From a virus (taxonomy: Duplodnaviria; Caudoviricetes): a DNA stretch of 64,000 nt. The notes under the pieces are model-generated. The model did no database searches and was not told where the DNA came from. It was given only the letters and a program-made list of their open reading frames with translations. Positions 18,687 through 38,028 of this stretch are shown piece by piece. Position numbers and translations under genes: made by a program. Numbering within the stretch: the first letter of the stretch is position 1; every line of letters starts with the position of its first letter. The stretch lies in the IMG/VR virus record IMGVR_UViG_3300006133_000325; one strand, 5' to 3'.

Positions 18687-19001
18687 TTACCCAATTGTAA
18701 ATCCACAAAAACTCTCTACAAAATCAGGCTCTTCAATTTGCTTATACTGTTCTTCTTCTTGCTTATATTCAAACCACCATCTTTTATGTGATGGATTATA
18801 TATCCCTTCATCACATTCTTCGATAAGTGCATATTGATAACAAGTTTCATTTATGTCGCAATTATTTTCTATTACAGATGAATAAGCATCTTCAAACTTA
18901 GAATACCATCCTACTAACCTGCTCGAGCCAAATTCCGGAAATTTTGACGTAGCATTGAAGCTTAAATCGGTCATTACCATAATAGTATATATTTTACTCA
19001 C
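18687..19001 (-). CDS. Hypothetical phage protein
   Basis: ORF with GAGGAG RBS. Confidence 0.65.
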   Translation of the reverse strand: MSKIYTIMVMTDLSFNATSKFPEFGSSRLVGWYSKFEDAYSSVIENNCDINETCYQYALIEECDEGIYNPSHKRWWFEYKQEEEQYKQIEEPDFVESFCGFTIG

Positions 19002-19869: not shown

Positions 19870-20283
19870 TTATGACAATTCATATATTATTCTTCTGCCA
19901 CTGTAACTCTCCTCATCCCATCCTTTCTTCCATTCCTCATACACTTCCTTATTCACTGGTACTCTAATTCCTATTCGTAGTTGTGCATAATAGGAATTGT
20001 CATCCAAAAAGCCATCTTTATTGCCTACATACCAACCATCCAATAGCAACTCTTGAAAATGAGGTACATAGCATTTGCAGCATAACTCTTTTTGATTTCT
20101 TACCTTACATCCTTTTGTAGTATCTCTATCAGAACATTCAAGTATAAAAATTTCAGATAAGTCATATGGAGTTATTCGAGCAATTTTCAAAATATCATAT
20201 GCGAAGAATGTTCTCTCATGATGGCTCTGCTTTAGATGAAATTCTTGGTGTATATTCAATTCTTTGTCATCTCCTAATAACAT
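19870..20283 (-). CDS. Hypothetical phage protein
   Basis: ORF in co-directional operon. Confidence 0.55.
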   Translation of the reverse strand: MLLGDDKELNIHQEFHLKQSHHERTFFAYDILKIARITPYDLSEIFILECSDRDTTKGCKVRNQKELCCKCYVPHFQELLLDGWYVGNKDGFLDDNSYYAQLRIGIRVPVNKEVYEEWKKGWDEESYSGRRIIYELS

Positions 20284-20309
20284 CCAAGAAAGTTTATTTT
20301 ACAATAAAT

Positions 20310-20600
20310 CTACAAATCAAAAAGTTGAATATTCGGTACTTCAATAGAATTATTTTCTTTTTCCTCCTCTACAATTTCTATCCCGTATTTTTCTACCACT
20401 CCCTCTGGATATTCTCTCATCCAAAGTTTAGCGCTTAATGTATTACCACAATTTTTACAAGCGCAACTTTCACAATCTTCCCATTTACTAAAAATTCCAT
20501 TTTGACTTCTATACTGTTCCACCAAATCTAAGTTCCATTCAATTTCTGACACGTTCCCACAATTTCCACATATCCATTTTGACTTGTCTGTTAAAATCAC
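20310..20600 (-). CDS. Zn-ribbon protein
   Basis: CGNCG...CKNCG; overlaps stop of radical SAM gene. Confidence 0.6.
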   Translation of the reverse strand: MILTDKSKWICGNCGNVSEIEWNLDLVEQYRSQNGIFSKWEDCESCACKNCGNTLSAKLWMREYPEGVVEKYGIEIVEEEKENNSIEVPNIQLFDL

Positions 20601-21733
20601 TTTTTATCACCATCCGATCTATTTATTTTACTATAGTTCATAAATTTCATATCAAAATATCTATATGCCAGTTCTGGGATCTCTTTTTCAATCTGTTTCA
20701 GGTATCTCATTTCCGAACACTCTTTTTGATGTCTTGATTGCTGATACTCCACAAATTCTCTATAAGATTTTTTCTTAAAAGCACTGGGCTGATTACACCA
20801 CGCAGCAAGATTTATATATGTACCCCTATAAGGAGATTCCTCATATCGGTTAAATCTCATAATATATGGTAAACACTGATATTTCATAAGCAGTTCGATT
20901 CGTTTCCATAAATCCCATATATCTTGCCTCCAAAATTTATCATCCCATTTATCTTCTCTATCAAAACCGCAAAAAGTATAAAATTTTAAGACTTTATCTG
21001 TATACCTTCTCAATAGCTGCAGCTTATTTTCGATCAGTTCGTAATCAGCTACATTGTCAAATGCAAATATATAATCACCATCATATTTACTGTTAAAAAT
21101 CACGTTACATTTTTCGTCTGTAAGAAGCCGTTCATCCATGCCTTGCTTATATTGAAATGGTTTTCTTGTATTTTGCAATTCTCTAAATATTTCTTTCCAA
21201 TAAGGACTTCCGAGAATATTATCATCCAATAAACATATCTTCTTTCTTGAAGGATCGAGAAACTTACTTAATGGACTATGATAATCAACTTTTTTATAAT
21301 TACGATTCACGCAAAATTCACATTGTCTAAAGCAACCTCTCGTCGTGTAGCCAATCGAATAATCAAGATAATACTTAAAATCATTTCTCTTTTTGCCACT
21401 CTCAATTTGTCGATTTACCCATGTATCATATAAATGGTAATCTGGCATATAGTGTTCTACTTCGTCAGGAAGCTTTGGAGCTTTGTCATAGAAGAATCCT
21501 GTTCCGCCATATTTTACATTAGGAAGTTTCAAAACTTCTTCATCTATTGGTGTATCAGTAAATACTTTAGAAATGAATACTTTGTCATATGTTTCCAAAT
21601 CTTCATAATCCATTTTTAATTCAACATCAGTACCAAGTCCTTTGTAGTAACCGGATAGTTTCATACAAACCAGATTGGGGAACCTGTGCTTGTCTCTGCC
21701 TATTAGATCTGCATCTATAATTGCTATTCTCAA
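20597..21733 (-). CDS. Radical SAM protein
   Basis: TTRGCFRQCEFC; FPNL..MKLS, GGTG, LDDNIL. Confidence 0.85.
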   Translation of the reverse strand: MRIAIIDADLIGRDKHRFPNLVCMKLSGYYKGLGTDVELKMDYEDLETYDKVFISKVFTDTPIDEEVLKLPNVKYGGTGFFYDKAPKLPDEVEHYMPDYHLYDTWVNRQIESGKKRNDFKYYLDYSIGYTTRGCFRQCEFCVNRNYKKVDYHSPLSKFLDPSRKKICLLDDNILGSPYWKEIFRELQNTRKPFQYKQGMDERLLTDEKCNVIFNSKYDGDYIFAFDNVADYELIENKLQLLRRYTDKVLKFYTFCGFDREDKWDDKFWRQDIWDLWKRIELLMKYQCLPYIMRFNRYEESPYRGTYINLAAWCNQPSAFKKKSYREFVEYQQSRHQKECSEMRYLKQIEKEIPELAYRYFDMKFMNYSKINRSDGDKK

Positions 21734-21844
21734 TAATCAGCACCAAAGTGGTTGCAACCTTTAAAGCTAGCTACTAATTATCCTTTCTTAATCATCTTAT
21801 TGTTTTAAAAGTTCTTGACATATCATCGGAATGCTATGATATTA

Positions 21845-22396
21845 TTAAATAACTGTATACCAATAATCAAATATTTTTCTATAGCTATTTCCGCTCTTAA
21901 TATCCCCCTTATATTGCCTTACTCGACCATTAGCATACTTTTTATAATACTTATATCTATTTGGTTTACGCCTTCCTCTATGTATTCTTTTATAATAAAC
22001 AGTTCCTACAGGATCATCGAAATTATACTTACCATTTTCACCAACAGGTATAGCAAGTGGTGGATAACCACTATATGTTTGCGCCAAAAATTTAACATGT
22101 GCTTTATATTTGAAATCTCTTTCTCTTTTACTTCTTCTCTTTTGTTTAGAATAATTTTGTGAAATTTCAGATTGTATATATGCATCTTCACATCTGCCAA
22201 CTCTGAAGGTCTTACCGCCTACTTTATCACACCATAAGAATTTTTCAAATTCATCTGCAGCATCTTCTGGCTTTAAATCATGATATATGTCATTTGGCAT
22301 TCCCTTTTCTGTAGCAGTTATTTCATACCAGCTCATCATCTTCTCAAAATCTTCTTTTCCGTAAGGACATTCCCTACAATACATGATATCCACCAC
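21845..22396 (-). CDS. Hypothetical phage protein
   Basis: Long ORF, basic C-terminus. Confidence 0.65.
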   Translation of the reverse strand: MVDIMYCRECPYGKEDFEKMMSWYEITATEKGMPNDIYHDLKPEDAADEFEKFLWCDKVGGKTFRVGRCEDAYIQSEISQNYSKQKRRSKRERDFKYKAHVKFLAQTYSGYPPLAIPVGENGKYNFDDPVGTVYYKRIHRGRRKPNRYKYYKKYANGRVRQYKGDIKSGNSYRKIFDYWYTVI

Positions 22397-22406
22397 CTAT
22401 CCATTT

Positions 22407-23165
22407 TTATAAAATAATACTATTCCATTTCTTATTCTTCTCGTATTTCCATTGAATGCTTCCATAATAAAATCTTGTTTCTATATCTTCTACACGTTCC
22501 ATAGACAATATCCATTCACGATATTTTACCGCCTCTTCTTTTGTGGCATCATAGTATGCCTTCCACATACTGATCGTTTTCTCTATTTGCTCTACAGACC
22601 ACTCATAATCAGATAAGGAAGCTTGTCTCTTAAATTCTGCTATATACTTATCCCTCTCCTCTTTCGCCTCTTTATATGTAAAATAGACTTTATCTGGTCT
22701 AATGCTTACCCTATCTACATGATGCTGCCATATCGGATATTTTTTTACGATACAAAATCCATCTTTTGTAATATCTTCTTCTATATTCCCATGAAAAATT
22801 TGATTCGATTTTACTAATAATCCTGACTCATATGCCTTTTTAATAGAATCTGGATTATCTATGGAAACATGTAAACTATCGAACAACTTTACATCTTCAG
22901 AATTTGGCTTCTGTTCTAAATGGAATAATTTAGTGTTATATGTCCATCCTTTTGGAAGTTTTCTTCGCTTTTCTTCGTTTTTGAATACATCTATTGGTAT
23001 TCCATCAACATATCTTGTTTCTTTTGGTTCCAATAGATCAATACAAACCGCATCGGAAAATTGCTCGTCTACTCGTCCGTATTTTACAAAATATTCACAA
23101 CCGATTTTCTGACACCAGTAAACGATATCACCATGATTAAATCGCTTTTCAAAACCTTTTTGAAT
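22407..23165 (-). CDS. Hypothetical phage protein (probable ATT start at 23165)
   Basis: Frame open upstream of track start; GGAGGTG RBS precedes ATT ATT CAA. Confidence 0.65.
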   Translation of the reverse strand: MQKGFEKRFNHGDIVYWCQKIGCEYFVKYGRVDEQFSDAVCIDLLEPKETRYVDGIPIDVFKNEEKRRKLPKGWTYNTKLFHLEQKPNSEDVKLFDSLHVSIDNPDSIKKAYESGLLVKSNQIFHGNIEEDITKDGFCIVKKYPIWQHHVDRVSIRPDKVYFTYKEAKEERDKYIAEFKRQASLSDYEWSVEQIEKTISMWKAYYDATKEEAVKYREWILSMERVEDIETRFYYGSIQWKYEKNKKWNSIIL

Positions 23166-23201
23166 AATTTCACCTCCTCTAATGAAAACGATATTTCATA
23201 A

Positions 23202-24083
23202 CTAATAGTTTGTAATCAATACTTCTATATCCTGGCTCTTATCCTTCTTTTGGTAATTGCAATTGTTATAATTACCATTTAAATAATGTACGTGATATCT
23301 ATCCTTCCATTCTTTCAGCATTGGATTGTCATATTTTAAATTGTTACTTAGTGCAAACCTCCCGCCCCTAAGATTGATGCCATCCAGTAAATTTAATAAA
23401 TCTCTCTCATCATTCTTCGTCCAGCCACCGTTTTCATTATAAGAAGCAACAGAATTATAATACGGCGGATCACAATACACAAAGTCCCTGTTTTGAAAGA
23501 CGCAATCTCTAAAATCTTTATTATGAAACTCAATATCCTTCTTATGTAATTCTTCTACAAACTCTTTCAGTTTCTTCTGTAATGCTATATTGTAATCTCG
23601 TTTTCCGTATGGTATATTGAATTCTCCTTTTGAATTAAAGCGTATCTGATTATTAAAAGCACATGCAATCAACGTATAAAACTTTATCCAATTTGGATAC
23701 TTATTATAGTCTTCCCGTAATTTTAAGTATTTAGTTTTATTATAATTCCCTAGACCATTACTTGAATTACAACCATAACTTTTATATCCATTTATATCAG
23801 ATCTGCTTAGCCCATAGCTCGTAATTGTTTCAAGGATTTTCTCATGAATATCTTTGTAATCAATTTCATAAAAATGTTTTAATAAATCTACTACTTGGGT
23901 ACATATATCATTATATATAATATGTTCTGCTTTTACATTTACGCCTACATTAAATCCACCGCCAAACAAATCAATAAATGTATTCATATCATCTGGGAAG
24001 AGATGTAAAATCTCCCCCAGCAATTTATATTTCCCACCGACATAATTCAAGCAAGATTTTATGTATTTTTCACTCATTATCAA
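23202..24083 (-). CDS. dam: Dam-like N6-adenine DNA methyltransferase
   Basis: NYVGGK, DLFGGG, R.N.KGEFN.PYG, DPPY, EVLITNY. Confidence 0.88.
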   Translation of the reverse strand: MIMSEKYIKSCLNYVGGKYKLLGEILHLFPDDMNTFIDLFGGGFNVGVNVKAEHIIYNDICTQVVDLLKHFYEIDYKDIHEKILETITSYGLSRSDINGYKSYGCNSSNGLGNYNKTKYLKLREDYNKYPNWIKFYTLIACAFNNQIRFNSKGEFNIPYGKRDYNIALQKKLKEFVEELHKKDIEFHNKDFRDCVFQNRDFVYCDPPYYNSVASYNENGGWTKNDERDLLNLLDGINLRGGRFALSNNLKYDNPMLKEWKDRYHVHYLNGNYNNCNYQKKDKSQDIEVLITNY

Positions 24084-24084
24084 C

Positions 24085-24124
24085 TAGGAGTAAACGCGCA
24101 TTTAAATGGTATACCAAACCTCAT
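24085..24124 (-). promoter_or_regulatory. Two-palindrome leader element, copy 1
   Basis: ATGAGGTTT-GGTATACC-ATT-TAAATGCGCGTTTA-CTCCTA. Confidence 0.6.
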
Positions 24125-24164
24125 TTTCCTCCTTGTTTATTTTATAAATCGTTTTATTATTCCA

Positions 24165-25034
24165 TCAATAATTAGTTAGGCAATCTCTCAACATTTCATC
24201 TTTTGCTCTTTGATAAAACGTGAGGTCAATCTCAAATCCGTATGCACTTCTTCCCAATTCAACCGCTGCCCTCAAAGTCGTTCCAGACCCACAGCAGGGA
24301 TCTATGACAACATCTCCCTCATCTGTAAATATCTCAATCAACTTTTTAAGGACTGATACGGGTTTTTGTGCAGGATGAATTTTAGGTATTTCTTTTCCAT
24401 CTCGCTCCCAATTAAACCAATTAAAAACCATATGACCTGTACCTGGAATATTTTTACCATTTTCATCAATTTGCAATCCATTTCTAAACTTAGGCAATCT
24501 GTCTCGATATAAAAGCAGTGCATATTCCGTTGCTCCTACAACACGCATATTTGCCTTTAGGACTTGAGGGCTGTAATTTTTGATGAATACTAAAGGTATG
24601 TAGTGGATAAAGCCATGTTTTGTCGCCGCGCTAATGAGCGTCTGTATCTGCTCAAAGCTGCAAAACACAATCATACAGGGAGAATTGCTACTCCTGCCTC
24701 GTGGAACTGGTTTTGTATCGTCTTTCTTTAACATTTTGTGACAGAAATTAAACATTTCATAAAGATTAAAATTGAAATCCGAATTAAAAGCCGCTTTTTT
24801 TGCATATTTACTTTCACCATTTTTGTTATTTCCCTTTTCGTACCACATAGGATTACTACCATAAAAATTTGTTCCAATGTTATAAGGACAATCGCAAATT
24901 ACCAACTGCGCTCTCGGTATGTTATAGCCTTTAAAATTCTGAAAACTATCTCTGTAAATCTCGAATTTAATTTTCTTTTTATATTCCATTTTTATTAGGA
25001 GTAAATCATGATTTATCCCGCGCGGAAACCTCAT
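24165..25034 (-). CDS. N4/N6 DNA methyltransferase (beta class); alternative start at 24989
   Basis: DCPY (DPPY-like), HPAQKP, DPCCGSGTT, GFEID. Confidence 0.88.
   Translation of the reverse strand: MRFPRGINHDLLLIKMEYKKKIKFEIYRDSFQNFKGYNIPRAQLVICDCPYNIGTNFYGSNPMWYEKGNNKNGESKYAKKAAFNSDFNFNLYEMFNFCHKMLKKDDTKPVPRGRSSNSPCMIVFCSFEQIQTLISAATKHGFIHYIPLVFIKNYSPQVLKANMRVVGATEYALLLYRDRLPKFRNGLQIDENGKNIPGTGHMVFNWFNWERDGKEIPKIHPAQKPVSVLKKLIEIFTDEGDVVIDPCCGSGTTLRAAVELGRSAYGFEIDLTFYQRAKDEMLRDCLTNY
24996..25034 (-). promoter_or_regulatory. Two-palindrome leader element, copy 2
   Basis: ATGAGGTTT-CCGCGCGG-GA-TAAATCATGATTTA-CTCCTA. Confidence 0.6.
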
Positions 25035-25081
25035 TTCCTCCTTGATTTTCTATTATTTCTATCTCATTTATTCCCTTGTAA

Positions 25082-25409
25082 TTACTCAATTTTTACATTG
25101 ATAAACCCAAGAACTTCCTTCATTCCAAGACCACCATCTTCCCATGGTTTCATACAATATTCCCATAATTTCGGATGTGTTTGCTTTAGCCGTTGAAATC
25201 TGTTTGGTTCTTTCTCTAAATGACACCCATATCCGCAAAAGGAGTATCCTGTCCTACTACAAGCAGTTGTATAATACTTTCCAGACTTCAAGCCTGCATT
25301 GTTTTTAGATCTTCATTTGTATATGCTCTTTGCTCTGAATTATAATCAGAAGGAGATAAAATGTCAGAATCATTATACCCCCTCTGGTTATTTTGCGTTT
25401 ATTATCCAT
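25082..25409 (-). pseudogene. PAPS-reductase-family gene remnant (N-terminus joined to C-terminus)
   Basis: YTNEDLKTMQA*SLE abuts RTG..FCGYGCHLEKEPNRFQRLK.THPK. Confidence 0.65.
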
Positions 25410-25535
25410 TACCTTATTGACATACGGCGTGTAAACACTTAATAACCGATTACTTTATGTACTTCTCCTTTTTCTTTTTTTGTATTTTCAGATTGTACTT
25501 TTCTGATTTATGGTACGTCTGCCGTCTTGCTCAAA

Positions 25536-26334
25536 CTACTTCTTTATTTCTTTTTCTTTACTACAATACTCATCACTTTTTAAGTGCTGTATAACTCGAT
25601 TTTTACCAGCTTCAAAATATTTTTCATCTTTTTCAATACAAATCACCTTTCTGTTTAAGTTACTTCCTGCAATTGCACATGTCATACTTCCTGCAACAGA
25701 ATCTAATACAACATCTCCTTCATCTGTATATGTTTTTATAAAATACTCATAAATTTCTACTGGCTTTTGAGTTGGATGAATCTTTTTTGATTGATCTGCA
25801 TTACTAAAAATCTGCACATCCAATGGGTATCTATCTGTACTGTCATATAAGGTATTTCGTATTTCTCTGCCATAACAGCTATTCCCATCTGCCTCTTTGA
25901 CATATTTTGTTTTTGCAAATTTTCTTTTATGTCCATGTGTCATCTGTGGATGATAAATTGGTGGTCTTTTATAAAACACTTCTATATTTTCATGCGCCCG
26001 CATTGGCATTTTTTTAGCGTTTAGATGTCCTTTGGGGTGTGTTTTCTGCCATATCCATTCATACTTAAACATCTTAGGATTACTCATTACCAAAGCAGAC
26101 GTAAATGGTTGACTACTAAATAGTAAAATCGCCCCATTGTCCTTAATAATTCTATTGTATTGTTTCCACAAAGGTTCAAACGGAATAATAATATCCCATC
26201 TACATTGAGTGGTACTAACCATACGGAAGATCGGAAATAATGCAATCTATGGATTTATCTGGAATATAACTCATAACATTCAGACAATCTCCGCGAATCA
26301 GCATATTATCACGAAAATCCGTATTGCTCGGCAC
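25536..26334 (-). pseudogene. N4/N6 DNA methyltransferase frameshifted by a 4-nt insertion
   Basis: GDCL..M...SID.I.SDLPYG* then TTQCRWD...HPTQKP...GS in another frame. Confidence 0.8.
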
Positions 26335-26399
26335 CTCCTCTTCATTAAATATTTTATATATATCTGTCAAAGCAAAATCCTTTCTTTATTTACAGGTTA

Positions 26400-26543
26400 A
26401 GTTTTTCTTATGTTGTAATATTCTATCATATCCCTTTTTAAATATTTTTTCTCTTTCTTAATACAAATACCTTTTTTCCTGATTTCTTAATGGCTATTGA
26501 TGAGATCTAAACAATCACCACAAAATAATTCAATACCTTTCAT
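26400..26543 (-). pseudogene. DNA methyltransferase remnant (internal deletion)
   Basis: MKGIELFCGDCLDL joined to a degenerate C-terminal segment. Confidence 0.5.
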
Positions 26544-26556
26544 TTAATATCTTCTC

Positions 26557-27285
26557 CTATACAAGCCCTAATCTTCTTTCTGCTACATCAAAATATTTTT
26601 TATCAATTTCATATCCTAAGAAGTTTCTTCCTAGCTCTGAAGCTGCTACCAATGCAGAACCCGTACCGCAGAATGGATCGAAAACTACTTCTCCTTCTTT
26701 GCTGGAATTTAATATATAGAATTTTAATAGATCTACTGGTTTTTCACATGGATGTGTCTTGTTTCCTATAATATTAGAAAATTGATGAACAGTTTTACTT
26801 TTTCCTATGTTATTGATATATTTTGCTTTTCCTTTTCTTAAAAACAAAATATATTCACAATTCTTCATATAATATTGGGAACAGACACAATTATTCTTCT
26901 CCCATACCAATAGATTATGTAGTTTAAAACCTACTTTTTGCGATTCGTTTAACATATCTGTCAAATTCAAGACATTCGTAAAAATATAGGCATGGCTCCC
27001 ATTCTTTAGAACTCTATATACATCCGACATCCAATCTGATATTTTTACATTTTGGTAGGAAAATAACCTTCTGTTGCCACTCAACATCCCCTTCGGACGT
27101 TCCGAATTCCTACCATTATGATTTCCTCCTGTAATAATTCTATATGGAGGATCTGTAATCAGTAGGTCTACACTTTCTGATTCCATGTTTCTCATTGCTA
27201 CAATAGAATCATCATTTATGATTTTATTACATTCCATTCTTTCTTTAGGGGTAAAATATACTTTATTGGAATTCCAAATCCCCAC
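26557..27285 (-). CDS. N4/N6 DNA methyltransferase (beta class); alternative start at 27237
   Basis: TDPPY, HPCEKP, DPFCGTGS, GYEID. Confidence 0.9.
   Translation of the reverse strand: MGIWNSNKVYFTPKERMECNKIINDDSIVAMRNMESESVDLLITDPPYRIITGGNHNGRNSERPKGMLSGNRRLFSYQNVKISDWMSDVYRVLKNGSHAYIFTNVLNLTDMLNESQKVGFKLHNLLVWEKNNCVCSQYYMKNCEYILFLRKGKAKYINNIGKSKTVHQFSNIIGNKTHPCEKPVDLLKFYILNSSKEGEVVFDPFCGTGSALVAASELGRNFLGYEIDKKYFDVAERRLGLV
27246..27285 (-). promoter_or_regulatory. Two-palindrome leader element, copy 3
   Basis: GTGGGGATTT-GGAATTCC-AA-TAAAGTATATTTTA-CCCCTA. Confidence 0.6.
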
Positions 27286-27294
27286 TCCCTCTAT

Positions 27295-27720
27295 TTATTT
27301 ATCGCTACTACTAAACTCATCTAAATCGGTATTGATTTTTGTTTGATCAATATCCCTTAAAAGTATTTCATAATCAGTATCACATAATCCCAAATAATCT
27401 TGTAAACACCAAGGAGTATTTTTTGGAGTTAGCTCTATCCATTTGTTAATCTTTTCAATCCATTCTTCCTCTTTGTAATCTTCTAATACATGCGTCTCAT
27501 ATTTCGCTTGTAGCCAAGCCAATTCTGCAGCAATCGCCTTCTCATATGTTATATAGTGTCTTGGTAAGTCAGGAGAGGTATAATAATACCCTAATCCAGA
27601 AGAGCGATATACCCGTTCTTTTGCAATCCTACTAATATTTCTTTGATTTAACTTTTCTATATTTGTAATAATATCCCAGCTTTCTATATTTGGAATCACC
27701 TTGCATAGTAGGAAAACCAT
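27295..27720 (-). CDS. Hypothetical phage protein
   Basis: ORF in operon; start uncertain. Confidence 0.5.
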   Translation of the reverse strand: MVFLLCKVIPNIESWDIITNIEKLNQRNISRIAKERVYRSSGLGYYYTSPDLPRHYITYEKAIAAELAWLQAKYETHVLEDYKEEEWIEKINKWIELTPKNTPWCLQDYLGLCDTDYEILLRDIDQTKINTDLDEFSSSDK

Positions 27721-27839
27721 GCAAGGCTATGTTTATTATTCCTTGTTTTTACGATGCCTCCCAGCTATATAACCTCCAATAAAGGATGCAATCAAACAAA
27801 CACTAAGATACAATAAAAAACTCCCAATTTGTAACATAA

Positions 27840-28586
27840 TCATATCTTTCCACTCTTTCTCTTTGCCTTCATCTTTGATAGTTTCCGCTCAATCTCTTCT
27901 TCCTTCATACGTTTGTCTAATCTTTGTTGCTGAACATCCGAAGAATTCTCATAAGCCACTTTATGACCATCTGCCTCCTCTTTTGTCTTGCGAACACCAT
28001 CACGAACTTTTTCTAGCATTTTATCTTCTTCCTTGTTAGAAATCCCAGGTGTGGCTTGTAATGATTTCGTAACCTGTGCTGTTTCTAATGTAAGTACCGC
28101 ACTTTCTTTCTCAGATTTTAAATCAGCCAATTCATTAAAAAGCTGATCTACTGTTTCTTTTTGTAAAGAGGAATTTTCTCTTAATTCTTTTAATGCACTT
28201 TTGATAATATCGATTTTTTCCTCTATTTCCTGTTGGCGTTTTAAATATACCTTGGCTCCCTCATCATCTTCTTTTTCCATACAAGAATCAAGATTGATGC
28301 CTAATTGCATATTGCCTTTCTGTAAACTTCTTAACTGTTCTTCGTAGTTTTGAATCTTGCCAAGCATTTGTGTATAAACCGAATATGCCTGCCTATAATC
28401 TTCTTCCTTTTTAGTAATTGCAGTATTGTAATAAGCCTTTGCCCCTTCTGGAGTAGATGCATCTTTTGTTATTATCTCATCAGCAGTTCCAACCATCCTA
28501 AGGCGTAATCTTTTCCCGATTCTTGTGACGAATAAAAAGACAATTACCATAATCAATAATAGTATCATTGCTACAATTTTAGCCAT
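27840..28586 (-). CDS. Membrane-anchored PspA/IM30-like coiled-coil protein
   Basis: N-terminal TM helix, long coiled coil, L..MK tail. Confidence 0.6.
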   Translation of the reverse strand: MAKIVAMILLLIMVIVFLFVTRIGKRLRLRMVGTADEIITKDASTPEGAKAYYNTAITKKEEDYRQAYSVYTQMLGKIQNYEEQLRSLQKGNMQLGINLDSCMEKEDDEGAKVYLKRQQEIEEKIDIIKSALKELRENSSLQKETVDQLFNELADLKSEKESAVLTLETAQVTKSLQATPGISNKEEDKMLEKVRDGVRKTKEEADGHKVAYENSSDVQQQRLDKRMKEEEIERKLSKMKAKRKSGKI

Positions 28587-28588
28587 AC

Positions 28589-29227
28589 TTAATCTCTCCC
28601 CTCATCAATCGACAAACCAAAATTCTGAAATAATTCTGTCATTCCATTTCTGTACCCAGAGCCAAGTGCCTGGAATTTAAACCCATTGTTATAGCGATAT
28701 AATCTACCCATTTCTACAGCATTTAGATTTTCAAAATTTTCATTTTCTGATAAATCATATTTATAACACTCTCCGGATGGATTATCATAATCACAGATTG
28801 TCATAGTTGCATTGCTTACCATGCCAAAATTTTGCAAACGCTGTACTGCCCTAAAAATAGTTAAACATACTGTAAAATCAGTTCTGTTTGTCGGAAACTT
28901 ATCGGCATGAATGATAAAATACTCATCAAAGTGTTCCCTGTTAAAAGTAATCCCTTGTGAATCATCTCCTGTTCGATTATCTCCCGAATACTCGATCCAC
29001 GGATATGAGCTGCCATCACCATATGTATTGTAATTTACAATATCATTTGGATATGCTACTTTTCTATCAGAGTTTGTCAAGAAGCCATGAATATCAAAAT
29101 CTATATCTGCTTCTCCTGCATATCTGTTGGCATCCCAATTCACCCCAATAAATACATTTGCAATAGCGCTTCCATCTTCTTTTGTCATATTGATTTTTTG
29201 GTTCTTACTCATGTTAATTACTTCCAT
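28589..29227 (-). CDS. terD: TerD-family stress protein
   Basis: GVNWD, D.D, GDNRTG, QNFGMVSNA, YDLSE, FQALGSG. Confidence 0.9.
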   Translation of the reverse strand: MEVINMSKNQKINMTKEDGSAIANVFIGVNWDANRYAGEADIDFDIHGFLTNSDRKVAYPNDIVNYNTYGDGSSYPWIEYSGDNRTGDDSQGITFNREHFDEYFIIHADKFPTNRTDFTVCLTIFRAVQRLQNFGMVSNATMTICDYDNPSGECYKYDLSENENFENLNAVEMGRLYRYNNGFKFQALGSGYRNGMTELFQNFGLSIDEGRD

Positions 29228-29244
29228 AATTCCATTCCTCCATT

Positions 29245-30033
29245 TTATTTATTGTTGAGCCAATCCTTATATTGGCGCAAAATTTCAGTATATAACTCCT
29301 CATCACTCATACCATCCATATCGCAAACGGCAGTAAATCCTGTATTGTCATTTTTTCTTCCTTTCATATCATCCAAAGAACGTAAATAAGAAAAATTGTC
29401 ATTTCCGATACCAATAAACTGCACAAACATATTGTAATTGGAAAGTTCCTTAATGATTTCATTTGTTTCCGTCTTATCCCAATTATCTCCATCTGTAATA
29501 AAAATGATAAATGCCGGAATGCAACTTGGTTCTACGTCTTTATAGTACTTCACGATGTCTTTTAAAACTGGCGCATAATTTGTCCCGCCCATATTCATAC
29601 GGGATTTCATCATAACCTCCCTTACATAATTCTTATAGTTTTGAATTGTCACAGCTTCCACTCGTTTTTGACTATCTGAAAACAGCCAAGATTCTAATTC
29701 GCCGTTATCATCAAATCGTAAAGAGATTGGAAGCAGCCTGGTAATAGTATTCTGCACAGATCCATCTGCAAACAGCCCGGACATACTACCGGAATAGTCC
29801 ATTGCTAATGCCACTCTTGCAACATGTTTTGACATATCAATTTTTCCTGTTTTAGACATATCAATCAATACTTTATCTAAGTTTTTTGCCGACTTAGACA
29901 TATCAATCGTCCCTACCATTTTTTCAGTTGATTCCTTTTGCGGTATTTCTCTACTTTGTGCTGGAGTACCGGAAATATCCGGATACTCCTCTTTGTTCTT
30001 GCTAAAAAGATTCTTAAATAGTCCCATACTCAA
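29245..30033 (-). CDS. vWA domain protein (Ter-associated)
   Basis: MIDAS DYSGSM, GGTNYAP, FITDG, QFIGIG, DNTGF. Confidence 0.88.
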   Translation of the reverse strand: MSMGLFKNLFSKNKEEYPDISGTPAQSREIPQKESTEKMVGTIDMSKSAKNLDKVLIDMSKTGKIDMSKHVARVALAMDYSGSMSGLFADGSVQNTITRLLPISLRFDDNGELESWLFSDSQKRVEAVTIQNYKNYVREVMMKSRMNMGGTNYAPVLKDIVKYYKDVEPSCIPAFIIFITDGDNWDKTETNEIIKELSNYNMFVQFIGIGNDNFSYLRSLDDMKGRKNDNTGFTAVCDMDGMSDEELYTEILRQYKDWLNNK

Positions 30034-32662
30034 ACTCCTTTTCTTTTATATTATTTCTTTTTACAATCGCTTTTCTAATCAAATCTACTGGAATTACCAA
30101 AAGAGAAAGACCTATAACGATAAGCCATTGAATCAGGTTCAATGAAGTAAGTTTCAATAATTCTCCTAAAAACGTACAAGCAATCATAACTCCAACAAAG
30201 ATTCCAATTGCTATCTCAACAAATAATTTATTTTTTTTCAAACCATGAAATAGATTAAAATGTTCTGTCCGAATATTAAATCCATTAAATACAGCCATGA
30301 AGCAAAGTATCGTAAATCTAGCAGTCAAAAATTCCAAATCACTCGTAAAATATCCGTGTAGAGATGTAAACATCATAAGGAAATACACCCCGATAAAAGT
30401 ACATGCGGCAATTGCGATTCTTCCCTTTGCTCCTCTGATAAATAAGCCAGAGCCTTTTTTAATAGGAACCTCACATATATATTCTTTTTTAGAAGGTTCT
30501 CCGCCAAAGGAAAGAGAGTTTAAAGAATCCATAATAATATTTACGATCAATATTTGAACAGATGCTAAAACAGACATACCAGAAGCAAAAATTGGATACA
30601 AAATACCTAAAATCAATAATGAAATATTGATAGGAAGTTGGAACTCTAAAAACATCATAATGTTGTGCATAAATGTCCTGCCAAGTTCTACTGCCTTTAC
30701 AGTGGAAGCAAAATTATCATCTGTTAAAACAATATCACTTGCTTCTTTTGCAACATCGCTTCCGCTTTGCATACCAAAACCAACATCTGCTCTCTTTAAG
30801 GCAGGTGAATCATTTACTCCATCCCCTGTCATCGCAACCGATTTATCAATTTCCTGTGCCAATGTCACCAAACGCAATTTTGTATTTGGAGAACATCTTG
30901 AGATAACGCGAAGAGAAGGAAGAACCTCTTTTACTTCTTCATCCGTCATTGCTTCAAATTCGTCATTTGTCAATGCAACCTCTCCATCTTTATAAATACC
31001 ACATTCCTTTGCCACAGCTACGGCAGTTTCAATACAATCTCCTGTAATTTCGATTACTTGTATCCCTGCTTTTTGTGCTGTCTTTACTGCTTTTGGCACC
31101 TCTTCTCTTATCGGATCTACCACTCCTATAACCCCTAAAAGCGTCATTTCATGTGGCAGATGATTTTCTATCAATGCTTCATTTTTAACTGCCAGGGCAA
31201 TACACCTCATAGATTTCGAGGTCATTGTTTTAATTGTATCACTTAGATTGCTTTTCATTTCTTTTGTGAATTCAAATACCGTTCCATTCTCCTGCATGTG
31301 TTGCGAACAAAAATCAATAATTCTCTCTGGTGCGCCTTTATAATATGTAATGCCATTTTCTGCGGTAAAGGCAGAGTATTTATTTAAGCTACTAAATACT
31401 TGCTTGTCCTTCATTTTGTTGTTTTTTACAATTTCTGAGTAATTCGACGGATTTACAAGGCTTAATACTGCTCGGTCAATAGAATTACCTCCTATTATGC
31501 TTCCTTCTCTGTCAAAGGTTGCACTATTATTTAGTACTATATTTTTCTGAACAGTATCCCAAAGAGTAGAATTTTTTAACAACTCTTTTCCACTTCCATC
31601 TATCACTGTTTTAGGAGACATCATTCCTGTTGTTAAAGTTCCAGTTTTATCTGTACAAATGATATCAACATAGGCTAATTCTGGAATCTTATTTGGATTT
31701 TTGGCAAGAATATTGAATCTTTCCATAGTTTTTACATTTTGCTTTGTAACCAATTTCACAATCAAAGGAAGCCCTTCCGGAACTGCTGCTACGATAATGG
31801 TTAATGCCACAGAAAAGTTTTGTGCAAATTTTTGTGCCAAGCTAAATACATTATCTGAAAAATAATTCTCAAATCCTACCTTTAAAATTCCCGAAGTCAC
31901 CAATACGATAAATGTTAAAATAGCAGCCGCGGTTCCCCATTTTGATATAAAATCGCCTAAATTATCAAGTGCAATATTTAATGCTGTTTTAGGTGATTCC
32001 AGCGTTTGCATTTTTACCATTGTATCACCATTAATCGTATTCACTCCAACATCTGTTACTACCATCTTCCCTTCGCCTGACATTACTGTTGTACCAGCAA
32101 AGAGACAATTTTCATTTGTATAAGCATCGGTTGATGTCGTTTTCTTATGAATATATTCATCTACTGGCTTTTTCTTACACTCTTTTGTTTCTCCATTGAT
32201 AGCAGCATTATTAACCGAAATTTTTCCTTCTACTATATACCCATCTGCAAAAATTTCATTTCCTAATCCAAGGCATACAATATCTCCTACTACAATATCA
32301 TCTTTATTGATGGTTTCTAATTTCCCATCTCTAATCACATCGCAATACCTTACAGATGTTTTTTCTCTTAACTCAACTGCAGATTTTTGTACTCCAATCC
32401 CTGTTTTTACGGCAATTCCTGTCACGATTCCAAGCACAACCATAATCATAGCTGGCTCTGAAAATTCCATTACTCCAACAAAAGTTAGTCCAAATTGTAA
32501 AACAGCGATAGAAATAAGGATCATTGTAATTTTTTCACTTAATGCTTCCTTTGCAAACTCATACCATTTTTTTAATTTTGGCTCTGGTAGTTTATTGCTG
32601 CCGTATTTCTTTCTGCTTTTTATAACCTCATTTTGAGTTAAACCTTTCATTTTTTCCTCCAT
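30014..32662 (-). CDS. Ca2+-translocating P-type ATPase (PMCA-like)
   Basis: VPEGLPL, DKTGTLT, KGAPE, DP.R, MTGDGVNDSPALK; multiple TM helices. Confidence 0.92.
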   Translation of the reverse strand: MEEKMKGLTQNEVIKSRKKYGSNKLPEPKLKKWYEFAKEALSEKITMILISIAVLQFGLTFVGVMEFSEPAMIMVVLGIVTGIAVKTGIGVQKSAVELREKTSVRYCDVIRDGKLETINKDDIVVGDIVCLGLGNEIFADGYIVEGKISVNNAAINGETKECKKKPVDEYIHKKTTSTDAYTNENCLFAGTTVMSGEGKMVVTDVGVNTINGDTMVKMQTLESPKTALNIALDNLGDFISKWGTAAAILTFIVLVTSGILKVGFENYFSDNVFSLAQKFAQNFSVALTIIVAAVPEGLPLIVKLVTKQNVKTMERFNILAKNPNKIPELAYVDIICTDKTGTLTTGMMSPKTVIDGSGKELLKNSTLWDTVQKNIVLNNSATFDREGSIIGGNSIDRAVLSLVNPSNYSEIVKNNKMKDKQVFSSLNKYSAFTAENGITYYKGAPERIIDFCSQHMQENGTVFEFTKEMKSNLSDTIKTMTSKSMRCIALAVKNEALIENHLPHEMTLLGVIGVVDPIREEVPKAVKTAQKAGIQVIEITGDCIETAVAVAKECGIYKDGEVALTNDEFEAMTDEEVKEVLPSLRVISRCSPNTKLRLVTLAQEIDKSVAMTGDGVNDSPALKRADVGFGMQSGSDVAKEASDIVLTDDNFASTVKAVELGRTFMHNIMMFLEFQLPINISLLILGILYPIFASGMSVLASVQILIVNIIMDSLNSLSFGGEPSKKEYICEVPIKKGSGLFIRGAKGRIAIAACTFIGVYFLMMFTSLHGYFTSDLEFLTARFTILCFMAVFNGFNIRTEHFNLFHGLKKNKLFVEIAIGIFVGVMIACTFLGELLKLTSLNLIQWLIVIGLSLLVIPVDLIRKAIVKRNNIKEKEFEYGTI

Positions 32663-32820
32663 TTCTTTTTATTTTTTGCTTTCTATATAATCTATCACAC
32701 AATCCCTGATAGTAGAAAACAAAACAATTAAACCAATTCCAATAACAATCCAAGCAGTTTCTTACATTTTATTACTCCTTCCTAGCATCCAAACATATTG
32801 TTCATCATCTTGTAAATTCA

Positions 32821-33717
32821 TCACTTCCTTAACCTAATTTTCTCAAACATATCATCAACTGATTCAAGTAAATCAAATCTCTCATCTAAAGGAGATGTTG
32901 AACTTTTAGAAAACTCCTTTTCTACCATATCAATAAAATAGGTAAATTCCGAATCCTCTCCCATATAAAACTCATCCCATTCTTCACTACTCATCAGCCG
33001 TCGGACTTCAAGCTGTTCTAAGGCTAAATTATCAAAGCTTACTACTTTGAAATGTTCGATGATGGCACCAATGTTTTCTTTCAGCCACATTTGTTTAGCA
33101 ATAATATTTTCACACTCCGCCCTATACCATTCATTTCCACGTCTTAACTGTTTATATCCAAGGATAAGTATTTTTAAACCTTTATCAGACAATATCTTTA
33201 CGTCAGATGGTTTAAATATACCGTTTATTACATGAATAACTGCATTTGGATACTGTTTGACCAATGATATAAATTCATCTGTTGGATCTACAAGTGATAC
33301 CCCAAGACCATATATCAATTTTTCTTCAGCTAATTTTTTAATCAGTTCCTGCTTCTGTTCAAAATGTTTTTGATTGACTGTAACATTTGCAATAACCCTT
33401 TTATCTTTTAGCTTATGTAAGAACGGAATCAGATCGGGATGGCTTGTTACGTCACCCCCTCCAAGTGCAACCTCCTGATACGGATGTAAAGTTTCAATAA
33501 AATTTTGGTTTAGGATATCTCCATGTTTACCATTTTTTGTACTTCCCTCATGACAAAAAGCACAAGACATGTCGCAATAATTGCTTATTTTAATATCATT
33601 ATTCTCTGCAAAATCAGGAATGAATTCATCCTCTTGCGTTTCTCTAATTTTAGTTCCGTCTAAAATATTAAATTTAACTGTGTAATTCCCATTTTTATAA
33701 ATCTTCCAACTGTTCAC
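32821..33717 (-). CDS. Radical SAM protein
   Basis: CDMSCAFCHE, ALGGG, NVTVN. Confidence 0.85.
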   Translation of the reverse strand: MNSWKIYKNGNYTVKFNILDGTKIRETQEDEFIPDFAENNDIKISNYCDMSCAFCHEGSTKNGKHGDILNQNFIETLHPYQEVALGGGDVTSHPDLIPFLHKLKDKRVIANVTVNQKHFEQKQELIKKLAEEKLIYGLGVSLVDPTDEFISLVKQYPNAVIHVINGIFKPSDVKILSDKGLKILILGYKQLRRGNEWYRAECENIIAKQMWLKENIGAIIEHFKVVSFDNLALEQLEVRRLMSSEEWDEFYMGEDSEFTYFIDMVEKEFSKSSTSPLDERFDLLESVDDMFEKIRLRK

Positions 33718-33732
33718 CTGTAAACCTCCATA

Positions 33733-34038: not shown

Positions 34039-34051
34039 AAAATTTTCTCTC

Positions 34052-35219: not shown

Positions 35220-37413
35220 ATTTTCCCCTTTCCTTATAAAAAAGCCTTCTTAACGTACAAATATCTCTTGGCATGCTACTCAAATCTTCTATATCATGTA
35301 AATTTCTAACCCAAGCATAAAATTCATTTGCTATTGGTGTGGTTAATCCAGAAGTTTTATAAATGTATCCGTTTTTAATTGTCTCATGAGCTACGCTTCT
35401 CATAAATTTCCAGAAATGATAATATGTCAGCTTTAGCTTGACCATATATCCAGAACTGTCTTCAATTACAAAACCTTCAATCTTGTTATTGTTGTATTCG
35501 TAGTCTTCCTGTAAAACATCATAATACCAATCAAAAAAATCTTGCCAATTTGCAATCTCAAACGCTTTTTCTTTGTGTTCTAATCCAAACTGCTCTGCAA
35601 TATGGCACATCTCACCATATTCATATTTAGCAAACTTCATTTGATTGTAAACAATATCTAATAATACCAACTTGTTTTCAGAATATTCGATAATATGCGG
35701 ATCGTTCTTCCTATCAACACATTCAAACACGAATGATACATTATGTTCTTTTATATAATTCTTCATTTTCAGTATATTTTCTTCTGATACTTTCTCATAC
35801 AACATATCTTTAAGCCAGCCAGCAAATTCACTGTCAATTGTAGACTTACTTGCAATAAATAAATCATCTTCATATTCGTTATAGCTGATAATTCCCAGAA
35901 AACCATTCTCTTTCACATATGCTGTTACAGGAAATTGTAGTTTATGCTGCAACATATCAAATTTCGTTTCAGAACGTTCATTGACATTAAAAAATTTTGT
36001 ATATGCTCTTGCTACTACTTTTCCTTTCATTGTGTCAAGATATAGTCCTCTTGCTTTCGTAGTCTGTTCGTCCCATATTTTATTGTAAAATACTTTAGGG
36101 GTAAAATTAAAAGATGAAATATTACCGAACTTCTTTTCTTGAATATACTTATTAGAACGCAATGCAATAATGACATCTGCTATCGTACTGCCTGTTACAG
36201 TTTGCTCTTTTTTGATTTCTGGTGTTTTAAATACCTCATTCTTTACTTCTATTGTATGAATCCCATTTTTATCAATCTGAACACACCTGAGATAACCTCC
36301 AAATTCTACTTGTCCTTCTAAATTGAATACCTTGTCATTTACTTGAATTGGCAATTGTTTCGTATTTCTATGTCCATGAACCTGGTAATAATTTTCTGGC
36401 GTAGTATTCAAATACGTCTCTGCCATTTTCTCAAAATCATTGTAATTGCCTACTCCATGAATCATTTGATCGGTTGCTACAAATGATAAATTGTTAGGAA
36501 CTGTACTGAGTCCAGCATGAGTAACCAAGAAAACTTTATCTTCATATTTATAATAAGCACACTGTCCAAATCTTCTATATAACTGTCTGATATCTTTTTT
36601 ATCAATTCCAGCCTCAATAAGTGCTGGTTTTGTTACTAACTCAAATTCTTTTGATTGGCTGAGACAATCATTAGCGTATAACCATAACCATTTTTCATGG
36701 TTCCCTTCTAACATCAATACATTTCTCTTATCTTTAATCGAAATAAGAAACTTTACAACTTCGGCATTTTCAATTCCTCGATCAATATAATCACCTGTAA
36801 AAATGAAAAACTCATTATCTTTCATTCCACCATTATCTGATAGATATTTCTGCAACACAGTATTGCAGCCATGGATATCTCCAATATGATGAATTTTTTC
36901 ATACTCTGACAAATCAATCATTTTCATCCAAATAGTATCTAATTCATCTGGTTTGATAATCTTTACTCCAGATGGAATCTTTTGCGTAGCAAATCTGGAA
37001 TACATTTTATCTATCACTTCTTCAGGTACTCTCTTTAATGGTACTCTGTTTGCATTTCTCCTTTTTACTTCTTCAATTGGAATATCTGTAAAATCAACAC
37101 AATAAATCCGATATCTATAGGTATCACACATTTGTTTATATCTGTTGATTTCTGATGTCTTGGAATTAGTTGCATCTACTACTGTAAATTCTCCTTTTTT
37201 CATCCTTGTTTCTAACAAGTTGAATAAAACCTTCCATGCAATGCCATCATTACTTTGACTGATTTCTTCCCTACCATCCAGCCGCATAATAGGACTCTGG
37301 CATAATAATCTGATATCATCTACTGATAATGTATAGGATTTTAACCCATTCTTTTCAATCCATGTGGATTTACCACATCCGGCAGAACCTCTTAATAAAA
37401 GTAAAATTCTCAT
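35203..37413 (-). CDS. Trifunctional RNA repair enzyme: polynucleotide kinase + metallophosphatase + Rnl1-like RNA ligase
   Basis: GSAGCGKST/DD.R/DATN; GDIHG, GDYIDRG, GNHE; ARGL, KFFN, KENG, FE, EGFV, KLK. Confidence 0.88.
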   Translation of the reverse strand: MRILLLLRGSAGCGKSTWIEKNGLKSYTLSVDDIRLLCQSPIMRLDGREEISQSNDGIAWKVLFNLLETRMKKGEFTVVDATNSKTSEINRYKQMCDTYRYRIYCVDFTDIPIEEVKRRNANRVPLKRVPEEVIDKMYSRFATQKIPSGVKIIKPDELDTIWMKMIDLSEYEKIHHIGDIHGCNTVLQKYLSDNGGMKDNEFFIFTGDYIDRGIENAEVVKFLISIKDKRNVLMLEGNHEKWLWLYANDCLSQSKEFELVTKPALIEAGIDKKDIRQLYRRFGQCAYYKYEDKVFLVTHAGLSTVPNNLSFVATDQMIHGVGNYNDFEKMAETYLNTTPENYYQVHGHRNTKQLPIQVNDKVFNLEGQVEFGGYLRCVQIDKNGIHTIEVKNEVFKTPEIKKEQTVTGSTIADVIIALRSNKYIQEKKFGNISSFNFTPKVFYNKIWDEQTTKARGLYLDTMKGKVVARAYTKFFNVNERSETKFDMLQHKLQFPVTAYVKENGFLGIISYNEYEDDLFIASKSTIDSEFAGWLKDMLYEKVSEENILKMKNYIKEHNVSFVFECVDRKNDPHIIEYSENKLVLLDIVYNQMKFAKYEYGEMCHIAEQFGLEHKEKAFEIANWQDFFDWYYDVLQEDYEYNNNKIEGFVIEDSSGYMVKLKLTYYHFWKFMRSVAHETIKNGYIYKTSGLTTPIANEFYAWVRNLHDIEDLSSMPRDICTLRRLFYKERGKYENTN

Positions 37414-37829
37414 TCTTCACTTACCGTCGTAAGTTGCACGTGCTTTTCACCTATAGGAACTTTTCATTTTATCCTTTCTTTATTTCTATTTTTAATATGC
37501 TTTCATTTCAAACCATTGCTCACCACAATAATTCTCTTTTTTAATAGCATCTATAATCTAGACCGTAATATATGTACATAATCGCTATTTTGTTCTCTTT
37601 AATTACTATCTATTTCATGTCTATTTTTAATTATTGTTCTCATTTTATTTCTCCATATATAATTTCCATAAAACTGTAAGATTGACTAATAAAATTATTG
37701 ACTTACTGTAGAATTCGTTATATTCTATATGTGTCCCAGGTGCAGAATACCAGACTTAGATCCTCATAACGAGTAGTGAGAAAAACCTATGGGACATTAT
37801 GCTCACTATTTCAAACGGAGGTGTTGCCT

Positions 37830-37928: not shown

Positions 37929-38028
37929 ATAACAGAGCTATTTGTTATTTACCCAAAATTATTTCTGTATGTTCTATTTCGTGTTTCTTAATTTAAGCCC
38001 AACTTTACTGTTTCAGGTATTTCTATGT

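Follow-up and report, generated by a model that had tools for sequence, protein, structure and literature searches.

Split ribosome-binding sites are known from genes 38 and 25 of bacteriophage T4, where a hairpin between the Shine-Dalgarno (SD) sequence and the start codon bridges 22 and 27 nt (PMC3014915; Nivinskas et al. 1999; Malys and Nivinskas 2009). RNA dimerisation has been described in other settings, and the cases covered by a review of the subject are retroviral, oskar, bicoid, phi29 pRNA and ribozyme RNAs only (PMC7357161). Here, we describe a leader found in a 64,000-nt stretch of viral DNA (Duplodnaviria; Caudoviricetes; IMG/VR record IMGVR_UViG_3300006133_000325), the whole of which is referred to as the window. 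The leader, located at 21731-21788, precedes a radical S-adenosylmethionine (SAM) gene and holds two self-complementary tracts (P1 and P2) between a distant SD and a TTG start codon. All coordinates given for it refer to the minus strand. The element is a structured translation-initiation region and belongs, as a variant at the subfamily level, to a leader type that is widespread in phages and has not been catalogued. Sequence comparisons suggest that the family is widespread in phages of gut Clostridia, ahead of DNA-modification and RNA-repair genes. On balance, and with some reserve, we favour the view that the leader acts as a translation-initiation cassette, in which a helix would juxtapose the distant SD and a weak start codon, and the two tracts would pair between copies of the mRNA.

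Comparison with described systems

In its behaviour the leader is closest to the T4 split sites, and in its palindromes to the retroviral dimerisation initiation site, but it belongs to neither. As in the T4 cases, it stands before a phage gene, its SD is too distant from the start codon, and the base of its predicted RNA structure adjoins both the SD and the start. Unlike them, it has a helix that overlaps the start codon and an insert with two self-complementary tracts, and it is a mobile cassette common to unrelated genes; there is no sequence similarity between the two. The retroviral site and other kissing-loop dimers share with it a short, perfect, purine-flanked palindrome in a stem-closed loop (PMC7357161), the sequence of which is free to vary while it stays self-complementary, just as the tracts of the window's leader family covary, centre included. 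Those dimers, however, function in the packaging of genomes or the localisation of mRNA, in viruses of eukaryotes and in eukaryotic cells, whereas the window leader has two tracts, an SD-to-start helix, and a dimer that is predicted from energies.

Leaders that sequester the SD, such as the SAM-III/SMK box and the hairpins of phage lysis and homing-endonuclease genes, resemble the methylase-type sisters of the window leader, which pair GGAGG with CUCC; SAM-using genes are involved in both. The window variant, in contrast, has no anti-SD (no UCCUUUC-like complement was found in the leader), and its SD is predicted to be open. Moreover, its centre is hypervariable, so that, unlike SAM-III/SMK box-type leaders, it should have no ligand pocket. 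A SAM riboswitch was rejected as a candidate on the grounds of this hypervariable core and the lack of an Rfam match: a cmscan search of positions 20000-38000 against Rfam 15, with E-values up to 10, returned no relevant match, and two unrelated weak matches were located elsewhere. Full-text literature searches retrieved no mRNA leader from bacteria or phages in which self-complementary tracts are under selection, and selection for full self-complementarity that includes the dyad centre has no described counterpart among such leaders. In the phage GenBank collection, blastn detected no match to the leader and one distant pair of neighbouring radical SAM and methylase genes.

Covariation of the self-complementary tracts

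For the analysis of covariation, 30 distinct leaders (24 of the methylase type and six of the window variant) were anchored on their dyad centres, and the cells were drawn from 23 distinct P1 and 22 distinct P2 14-mers. At the four innermost pairs of P1, 90 of the 92 cells were Watson-Crick and the other two G·U, while the five innermost pairs of P2 gave 101 Watson-Crick, seven G·U and two other combinations among 110 cells. Positions 4-5 of P2 showed three types of Watson-Crick pair, and all four types were found at every other core position, the central pair included. When the partner was slid by one column, Watson-Crick pairing of the variable core fell to approximately 10-25%, and pairing persisted at positions 4-5 of P2, which belong to its A/U tract. 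Since the four bases at the centre of a hairpin are unable to pair, and the central pairs covary, a cis hairpin formed by each palindrome was rejected. In the initial annotation, the element would loop out for initiation from the distal SD; a looped-out hairpin in cis does not account for tracts that are selected through the dyad centre with tolerance of G·U.

The distribution of the remaining core pairs was asymmetric. On the sense strand, nine non-Watson-Crick pairs were G·U and none was A·C, which corresponds to approximately six to seven independent events. Examples include GCUGGC, ACUGGU, GUCGGC, GUGCGC, UGCGCG and UUGGUCGGCCAA, as well as AGCUGGCU in the window variant. This asymmetry argues for pairing of RNA rather than for a double-stranded DNA dyad, and the covariation as a whole points to self-complementarity that acts at the RNA level, not to a cis hairpin or a DNA dyad site.

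The same asymmetry bears on a DNA-level explanation, according to which the palindromes would be sites for dimeric DNA-binding proteins (phage methylases, host restriction-modification enzymes or a regulator), and expression of the modification genes would be tied to methylation or occupancy of the leader. It is in keeping with this explanation that the genes served are mostly DNA methylases and that any palindrome of 6-8 bp could be a site for a type II enzyme. In addition, palindromes of at least 8 nt are rarer than expected across the window (257 vs. 354 ± 20), which indicates that restriction pressure exists and which is a trend that the leader palindromes run against. However, the symmetry of imperfect copies depends on allowing G·U and holds for the sense strand only (nine vs. 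none), the palindromes differ in every leader, even between phages with 88-97% identity in the downstream gene, which is often not a methylase, and one and the same leader serves unrelated genes. The conserved unit, furthermore, has the SD and the start codon as its limits. Taken together, a DNA-level role is regarded as improbable. The idea that the palindromes represent the recognition site of the methylase itself was rejected, as the same gene occurs with different palindromes and the same leader with different genes.

Individual changes could be followed in closely related phages. A stepwise compensatory change between near-identical phages leads from UGGUCGACCA to UGACCGGUCA, and, within the window variant, P1 has changed from AGCUAGCU to AGCUGGCU (U-A to U·G) and P2, in a compensatory manner, from GGUUGCAACC to GGAUGCAUCC. 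Wholly different palindromes were found in phages that are 90-97% identical over the 150 nt upstream and ~88-94% identical in the downstream coding sequence. Thus, the tracts change faster than their surroundings, and their self-complementarity is kept.

The self-duplex energy amounts to -11.4 kcal/mol for P1 (AGCUAGCU; -9.8 kcal/mol for the variant AGCUGGCU) and to -16.3 kcal/mol for P2 (GGUUGCAACC; -17.1 kcal/mol for the variant GGAUGCAUCC). For the four leaders of this type present in the window, the predicted gain on self-dimerisation ranges from -9.8 to -15.1 kcal/mol, and that of the hetero-dimers from -0.1 to -3.2 kcal/mol. Beside its self-dimer gain of -13.1 kcal/mol, the radical SAM leader gains -0.1 to -3.1 kcal/mol in hetero-dimers. 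As mixed pairs gain little in comparison with self-dimers, the leaders look mutually orthogonal.

The leader as a portable module

A flank-anchored scan located the window-type leader in approximately 20 IMG/VR phage contigs and in one contig (L013) of a Lachnospiraceae metagenome-assembled genome. At least three unrelated genes are found behind it, namely the radical SAM gene (the window, L013, L156 and L161), D12-type methylases (L019, L020 and L141), and a gene for a 268-aa protein without a Pfam match (~14 contigs). An exact-pattern scan detected the 23-nt palindrome core ahead of a D12-type methylase in two contigs. In the alignment of the leader copies (A2), identity extends from AGAAAGGA to TTGA, and the flanking sequences on both sides are unrelated. 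As shown by this alignment, the unit that is conserved and exchanged between genes reaches exactly from the SD to the TTG. By this comparative evidence, the leader is a swappable module that is not bound to the radical SAM gene.

The initial annotation had likened the architecture of the leader to that of the methyltransferase leaders, with different sequence. The likeness holds in both directions, as radical SAM orthologs at 78-89% identity bear the methylase-type leader itself, and the exact window variant precedes methylase genes in other phages. Exchange is also seen in the methylase-type subfamily, where one leader stands before two methylase families and one zinc-ribbon gene occurs with three palindrome pairs. 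Genes behind leaders of the family encode D12 and N6_N4 methylases, an SNF2-methylase fusion, a PAPS-reductase-like protein, a double zinc ribbon, a radical SAM enzyme, and a kinase-phosphatase-RNA ligase. Among the genes that follow methylase-type leaders in IMG/VR, the most frequent codes for a 203-aa double zinc-ribbon protein (MIKDKYSRQRYE...CVLCGK) and not for a methylase (L023-L140, many loci).

A relaxed flank pattern (AGAAAGGATAA, 36-54 nt, RATTATTG) produced approximately 70 new matches, all of which were ordinary gene starts; these chance matches, which served as a negative control, contained no palindrome pair of this kind, and no further leader variants were recovered with this pattern. 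An integron attC-like cassette site is also disfavoured: the leader lacks a GTTRRRY core, and the strand that tolerates G·U is the sense RNA.

Statistics of the window alone do not distinguish the leader. AGCTAGCT occurs once against 0.35 expected (equalled in 30 of 100 shuffles), and GGTTGCAACC, with at most one mismatch, twice against 0.74 expected (equalled in 17 of 100 shuffles). Three G/C-containing palindrome pairs (at least 8 nt, within 32 nt) are present in the window, compared with 2.1 ± 1.4 in Markov simulations. Neither these counts, nor palindrome clusters, nor fold z-scores revealed anything beyond chance in the window-only tests. That the element is real is confirmed by comparison between genomes, and this conclusion is due to the comparative data, not to the window statistics. 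The window-only figures would agree with an element that has no function, i.e., with chance palindromes in an AT-rich spacer and a gene started by a weak proximal GGUG. A 55-nt block conserved amid unrelated flanks in ~20 contigs, the family-wide covariation, and the lack of such palindrome pairs from the ~70 chance flank matches speak against it, as does the fact that the GGUG is GGUA in most copies of the leader; we consider this explanation most improbable.

Two other 8-nt palindromes rich in G/C, UUCCGGAA and GCUCGAGC, form a pair with a spacing of 4 nt at 18921-18940 on the minus strand, inside the open reading frame (ORF) 18687-19001. The pair lies ~60 nt into the coding region and outside any leader, and may be a product of chance.

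Leader anatomy and closing helix

The radical SAM gene is separated from the end of the upstream gene at 21845 by an intergenic gap of 111 nt. The leader takes up the final 58 nt of the gap, with 55 bases before the radical SAM start, and reads, from 5' to 3', AGAAAGGA, UAAUUAGU, AGCUAGCU, UUAAAG, GGUUGCAACC, ACUUUGGUGCUGAUUA and UUG (Table 1). The first G of GGUUGCAACC doubles as the final base of the UUAAAG spacer, and P2 can be read either as GUUGCAAC, following UUAAAG, or as GGUUGCAACC. The window copy contains two self-complementary tracts with a short A-rich spacer between them, and it has the layout of the family, in which the SD and the start codon form the edges, ~45-55 nt apart and without a well-placed proximal SD. 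The spacer happens to form a third palindrome, CUUUAAAG, the self-duplex of which is weak (-5.0 kcal/mol). We regard it as incidental; in the methylase-type leaders, an A-rich spacer is the counterpart of this segment.

The initial annotation had reported a GAAAGGA SD approximately 50 nt from the start, both palindromes between the SD and the TTG, and a closing UUAGUA/UGCUGA stem, all of which were recovered. GAAAGGA occupies 21787-21781 and, together with the preceding A, makes up AGAAAGGA, which we take to be an 8-nt complement of the 3' end of Firmicute 16S rRNA; the palindromes are found at 21772-21765 and 21759-21750, and 47 nt were counted between the last base of the SD and the TTG. RNAfold lengthens the closing stem to 10 bp (G21782-U21773 with G21741-U21732), on which A21772-U21742 could stack as an 11th pair. 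Evaluated alone as 11 bp, i.e., with the latter pair included, the helix has an energy of -7.4 kcal/mol.

Table 1. Coordinates of the leader elements, the downstream gene and the sister leaders in the window.
Feature	Position	Strand	Remarks
Shine-Dalgarno AGAAAGGA	21781..21788	-	5' edge of the module; invariant in 9 distinct copies; homology to other contigs begins here
Closing helix, 5' arm GAUAAUUAGU	21773..21782	-	RNAfold, leader alone; shares the last 2 SD bases
Tract P1 AGCUAGCU (DNA AGCTAGCT)	21765..21772	-	Self-complementary; AGCUGGCU in most relatives, with a central U·G and self-pairing kept
A/U-rich spacer, third palindrome CUUUAAAG (DNA CTTTAAAG)	21759..21766	-	Overlaps P1 and P2, bridging them
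Tract P2 GGUUGCAACC (DNA GGTTGCAACC)	21750..21759	-	Self-complementary; GGAUGCAUCC in L156, a compensatory double change
Small predicted hairpin ACCA-CUU-UGGU	21742..21752	-	RNAfold; overlaps the 3' end of P2
Closing helix, 3' arm GCUGAUUAUU	21732..21741	-	Shares the first 2 bases of the start codon; UACUAAUUAU or UGCUAAUUAU in relatives
TTG start codon	21731..21733	-	3' edge of the module; invariant in all leader copies, whatever the downstream gene
Radical SAM gene, 378 aa	20597..21733	-	phrog_9298, E = 1.6e-45; CX3CX2C at C134/C138/C141
Sister leader, methylase type, before D12-class methylase	24077..24136	-	GGAGGAAAAUGAGGUUU, GGUAUACC, AUUUAAA, UGCGCG, UUUACUCCUA, start
Sister leader before N6_N4 methylase	24987..25042	-	GGAGGAAAUGAGGUUU, CCGCGCGG, GAUAAA, UCAUGA, UUUACUCCUA, probable start ATG 24989
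Sister leader, GAAAGGAUAA type, before kinase-phosphatase-RNA ligase	37411..37478	-	CCUAUAGG, UGAAAA, GCACGUGC, ATG 37413

By prediction and conservation, the closing helix links the nucleotides immediately 3' of the SD with those immediately 5' of, and into, the start codon. In alignment A2, 97.8% of its cells are paired, and the sole changes are from A-U to G·U (UACUAA, UGCUAA, UGCUGA), although this conservation within the variant is weak evidence, as the search pattern had fixed much of the helix. In the sister subfamily, a helix is found at the same place with another inner sequence, AUAAGAGUACC with GGUACUUAU. The small hairpin is ACCG...UGGU in relatives, with A-U changed to G·U, which lends it weak, one-sided support. 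According to the predicted ensemble, the SD is unpaired with a probability of 0.72-0.98, and the UUG with a probability of 0.08-0.15. When the helix is fully formed, the last two bases of the SD are paired with the first two of the UUG, leaving a spacing of zero. Since the full helix pairs the UU of the UUG, it could repress as well as bridge.

A conserved helix that borders the SD and the start exactly would also suit a split or masked ribosome-binding site that acts purely in cis. In this case, the closing helix would do all of the work and the palindromes would be compact filler, their symmetry being a by-product of template-switch or snap-back replication errors, or of the exchange of small cassettes, unselected for intermolecular pairing. 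T4 genes 38 and 25 demonstrate that a hairpin between SD and start is workable, and no natural dimerising bacterial mRNA leader was found in the literature searches. Such filler does not account for the stepwise compensatory pair changes in near-identical phages (UGGUCGACCA to UGACCGGUCA, GCCGGC to ACUGGU, GGUUGCAACC to GGAUGCAUCC), for core exceptions that are all G·U on the sense strand, or for the U-tract and A-tract flanks that lengthen the tracts to 12-16 nt. A purely cis-acting site is therefore considered rather unlikely, and pairing between copies of the message is preferred.

Proposed mechanism and its implications

In the mechanism that we propose, the leader would supply both the ribosome-binding site and the start codon of the gene that follows. 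The helix would set the SD, 47 nt distant, beside the weak UUG, as in T4 genes 38 and 25, and full zipping would mask the UUG, resulting in a low, tunable output. The tracts have no loop for folding on themselves and, for this reason, would most likely pair in trans with their counterparts on another molecule of the same mRNA. Pairing between copies would make translation or stability dependent on the concentration of the transcript, and the dimers might activate the message, silence it, or mark it for cleavage. As a matter of speculation, the fast turnover of the tracts may come from the RNA having to stay palindromic while palindromes in DNA attract restriction.

Several observations weigh against this mechanism. 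As for the tracts, the 9:0 bias in favour of G·U amounts to ~6-7 independent events, and strand-biased mutation could contribute to it. The window variant varies too little to reveal covariation, and its value was matched by 61 of 500 shuffles. The predicted gain of the homodimer is -13.1 kcal/mol, compared with -7.7 ± 2.8 kcal/mol for shuffled sequences (z = -1.95; reached by 8 of 200 shuffles), and any hairpin gains something as an extended duplex. Dimerisation would also need a sufficient concentration of mRNA and would have to be tolerated by ribosomes. As for the helix, the T4 structures bridge 22 and 27 nt, in comparison with 47 nt here, and the helix, once zipped up completely, conceals the start codon, so that its net effect could be repression and not activation. 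The stability of the cis fold is no better than that of shuffled sequences (z-scores of -0.24 and -0.40). In a longer context the minimum-energy fold shifts and takes in codons 3-4 of the radical SAM gene; this fold is not regarded as the conserved one, since leaders in front of other genes are not followed by these codons. Finally, three copies, among them that of the window, have a weak proximal GGUG at a distance of 7 nt from the UUG, which might contribute to initiation; it is GGUA in most copies of the leader.

A more specific and more tentative proposal is that the leader is an mRNA-dimerising translational switch, which would sense the concentration of its transcript through two orthogonal tracts without the aid of a protein. 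Copies of the same mRNA would pair with each other and not with the other leaders of the phage, and this pairing would alter the geometry of SD and start or create a double-stranded RNA target. In this way, the amount of message would set the output of potentially toxic DNA-modification enzymes, and restriction of the tracts in their DNA form would keep them changing.

If this is true, bacteria and phages would have their first natural example of a translation leader that dimerises. Should the broader reading as a cassette hold, phages of gut Clostridia would fit newly acquired genes for counter-defence (methylases, radical SAM, RNA repair) into their operons by means of a portable unit that reaches from ribosome-binding site to start codon, with RNA structure alone setting the level of expression, and RNA-RNA dimerisation as a regulatory principle would be testable with an RNA of 60 nt. 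There are also consequences for annotation. Gene callers mis-start or mis-annotate such genes, the only SD of which is 50 nt away from a TTG, or even ATT or ATA, start. They also add spurious extensions at the N-terminus, for instance MRFPRGINHDLLLIK in the case of an N6_N4 methylase.

Radical SAM gene and orthologous leaders

No Pfam or NCBIfam match was obtained for the radical SAM protein. Its three motif cysteines are invariant among orthologs (alignment A1), as are I6, D7, A8, D9 and L10 at the N-terminus. An in-frame TGA is located two codons upstream of the TTG (21739-21737), and almost all of the ~80 IMG/VR orthologs start at the same codon, with the N-terminus M[KR]IAIIDADLI. The in-frame stop, the ortholog starts and the invariant residues 6-10 identify TTG 21733 as the start, as initially annotated, and an alternative start is not supported.

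In most of the ~80 orthologs, the distant ones among them, the start is an ATG preceded at 5-10 nt by a conventional SD (GGAGG). The paired palindromes that the initial annotation had expected in orthologous leaders are present in close orthologs, being confined to close, low-GC relatives of the radical SAM gene, in which three kinds of palindromic leader occur. The window-type leader is found in L013, L156/L170 and L161/L167. The methylase-type leader (L001-L004, L012 and L181) is laid out as GGAGG, GAGGUUU, GUCAUGAC, AGAAAA, GUGCAC/GUAUAC/GUGCGC, UUUACUCCUA, 7 nt and UUG. The third kind (L005-L007, L011, L195 and L196) has the prefix GGAAAGGAUAA, followed by CUCAUGAG or CCAUGG and then by GCUGCGCAGC. 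In L195 and L196, this leader (CCAUGG, then GCUGCGCAGC) ends in ...GGUACUUAUU AUA AAG, upstream of the radical SAM match (locus position 2501). There is no ATG, GTG or TTG at or near the conserved first codon of these two loci, and the start may be AUU or AUA.

Comparison of the leader copies also bears on a mini-ORF, MQPLWC-stop, that runs from UUG 21757 in frame with the gene and ends one codon before UUG 21733, from which reinitiation could take place. The mini-ORF is open in both the window and L013 (UGC UGA to UAC UAA; CCA to CCG), and its start becomes AUG in L156. However, it lacks a correctly spaced SD, AAAGG abutting its UUG, and it is ended earlier by a 1-nt insertion in L019, L020 and L156. 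The second change in L156 falls at the exact mirror position, as the palindrome model predicts, and in the methylase-type leaders the upstream ORF is inconsistent: one has it in frame, another has it in a different frame, and L001 lacks it. Reinitiation is thus very hard to credit. Translational bypass or hopping and upstream-ORF coupling were rejected as general mechanisms, as the upstream frames are inconsistent between copies.

Two other elements were noted in the intergenic region. A good promoter-like match (TTGACA, 17 nt, GATATT) at 21815-21843 on the plus strand is directed away from the leader, in antisense orientation to a 183-aa gene; promoter-like sites in the region show no excess over the shuffle expectation. 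An A/U-rich inverted repeat (AUAUCAU, 9 nt, AUGAUAU) lies at 21819-21841 on the minus strand, directly after the stop of the upstream gene, and has no U-tract.

Sister leaders in the window

The window holds four leaders of this family, including the one before the radical SAM gene (Table 1). The methylase-type flanks GAGGUUU...UUUACUCCUA, the latter being the anti-SD, are found within the window only at 24085-24132 and 24996-25041. In methylase-type leaders, GGAGG and a conserved CUCC just before the start form an SD:anti-SD helix of 8-11 bp. The flanks of the radical SAM leader are GGAUAAUUAGUA...UGCUGAUUAUUG, and, as they differ from the methylase type, the window copy is assigned to a separate subfamily; by its sequence, it is a member of the GAAAGGAUAA subfamily, which has no anti-SD.

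For the N6_N4 methylase behind one of the sister leaders (24989-25034, minus strand), the ORF caller adds 15 residues, MRFPRGINHDLLLIK, the leader being in frame and open. Its true start is probably ATG 24989, 6 nt past UUUACUCCUA, as in sister leaders. A third N6_N4 methylase, also on the minus strand, is split: an N-terminal piece (26216-26370) begins with UUG at ~26369 behind GAAAGGA and ends ...SDLPYG-TAG at ~26216, and the remainder, VSTTQCRWD..., is in another frame from 26222 (25536-26222). The frameshift represents a pseudogene, a sequencing error or a programmed event. A 208-aa ORF (22407-23033, minus strand), listed from a TTG, is open for ~44 codons further upstream. In the upstream region (23034-23180, minus strand), a strong AGAGGAGGUG is followed, after 5 nt, by AUU AUU, and the gene probably starts at a non-canonical AUU.

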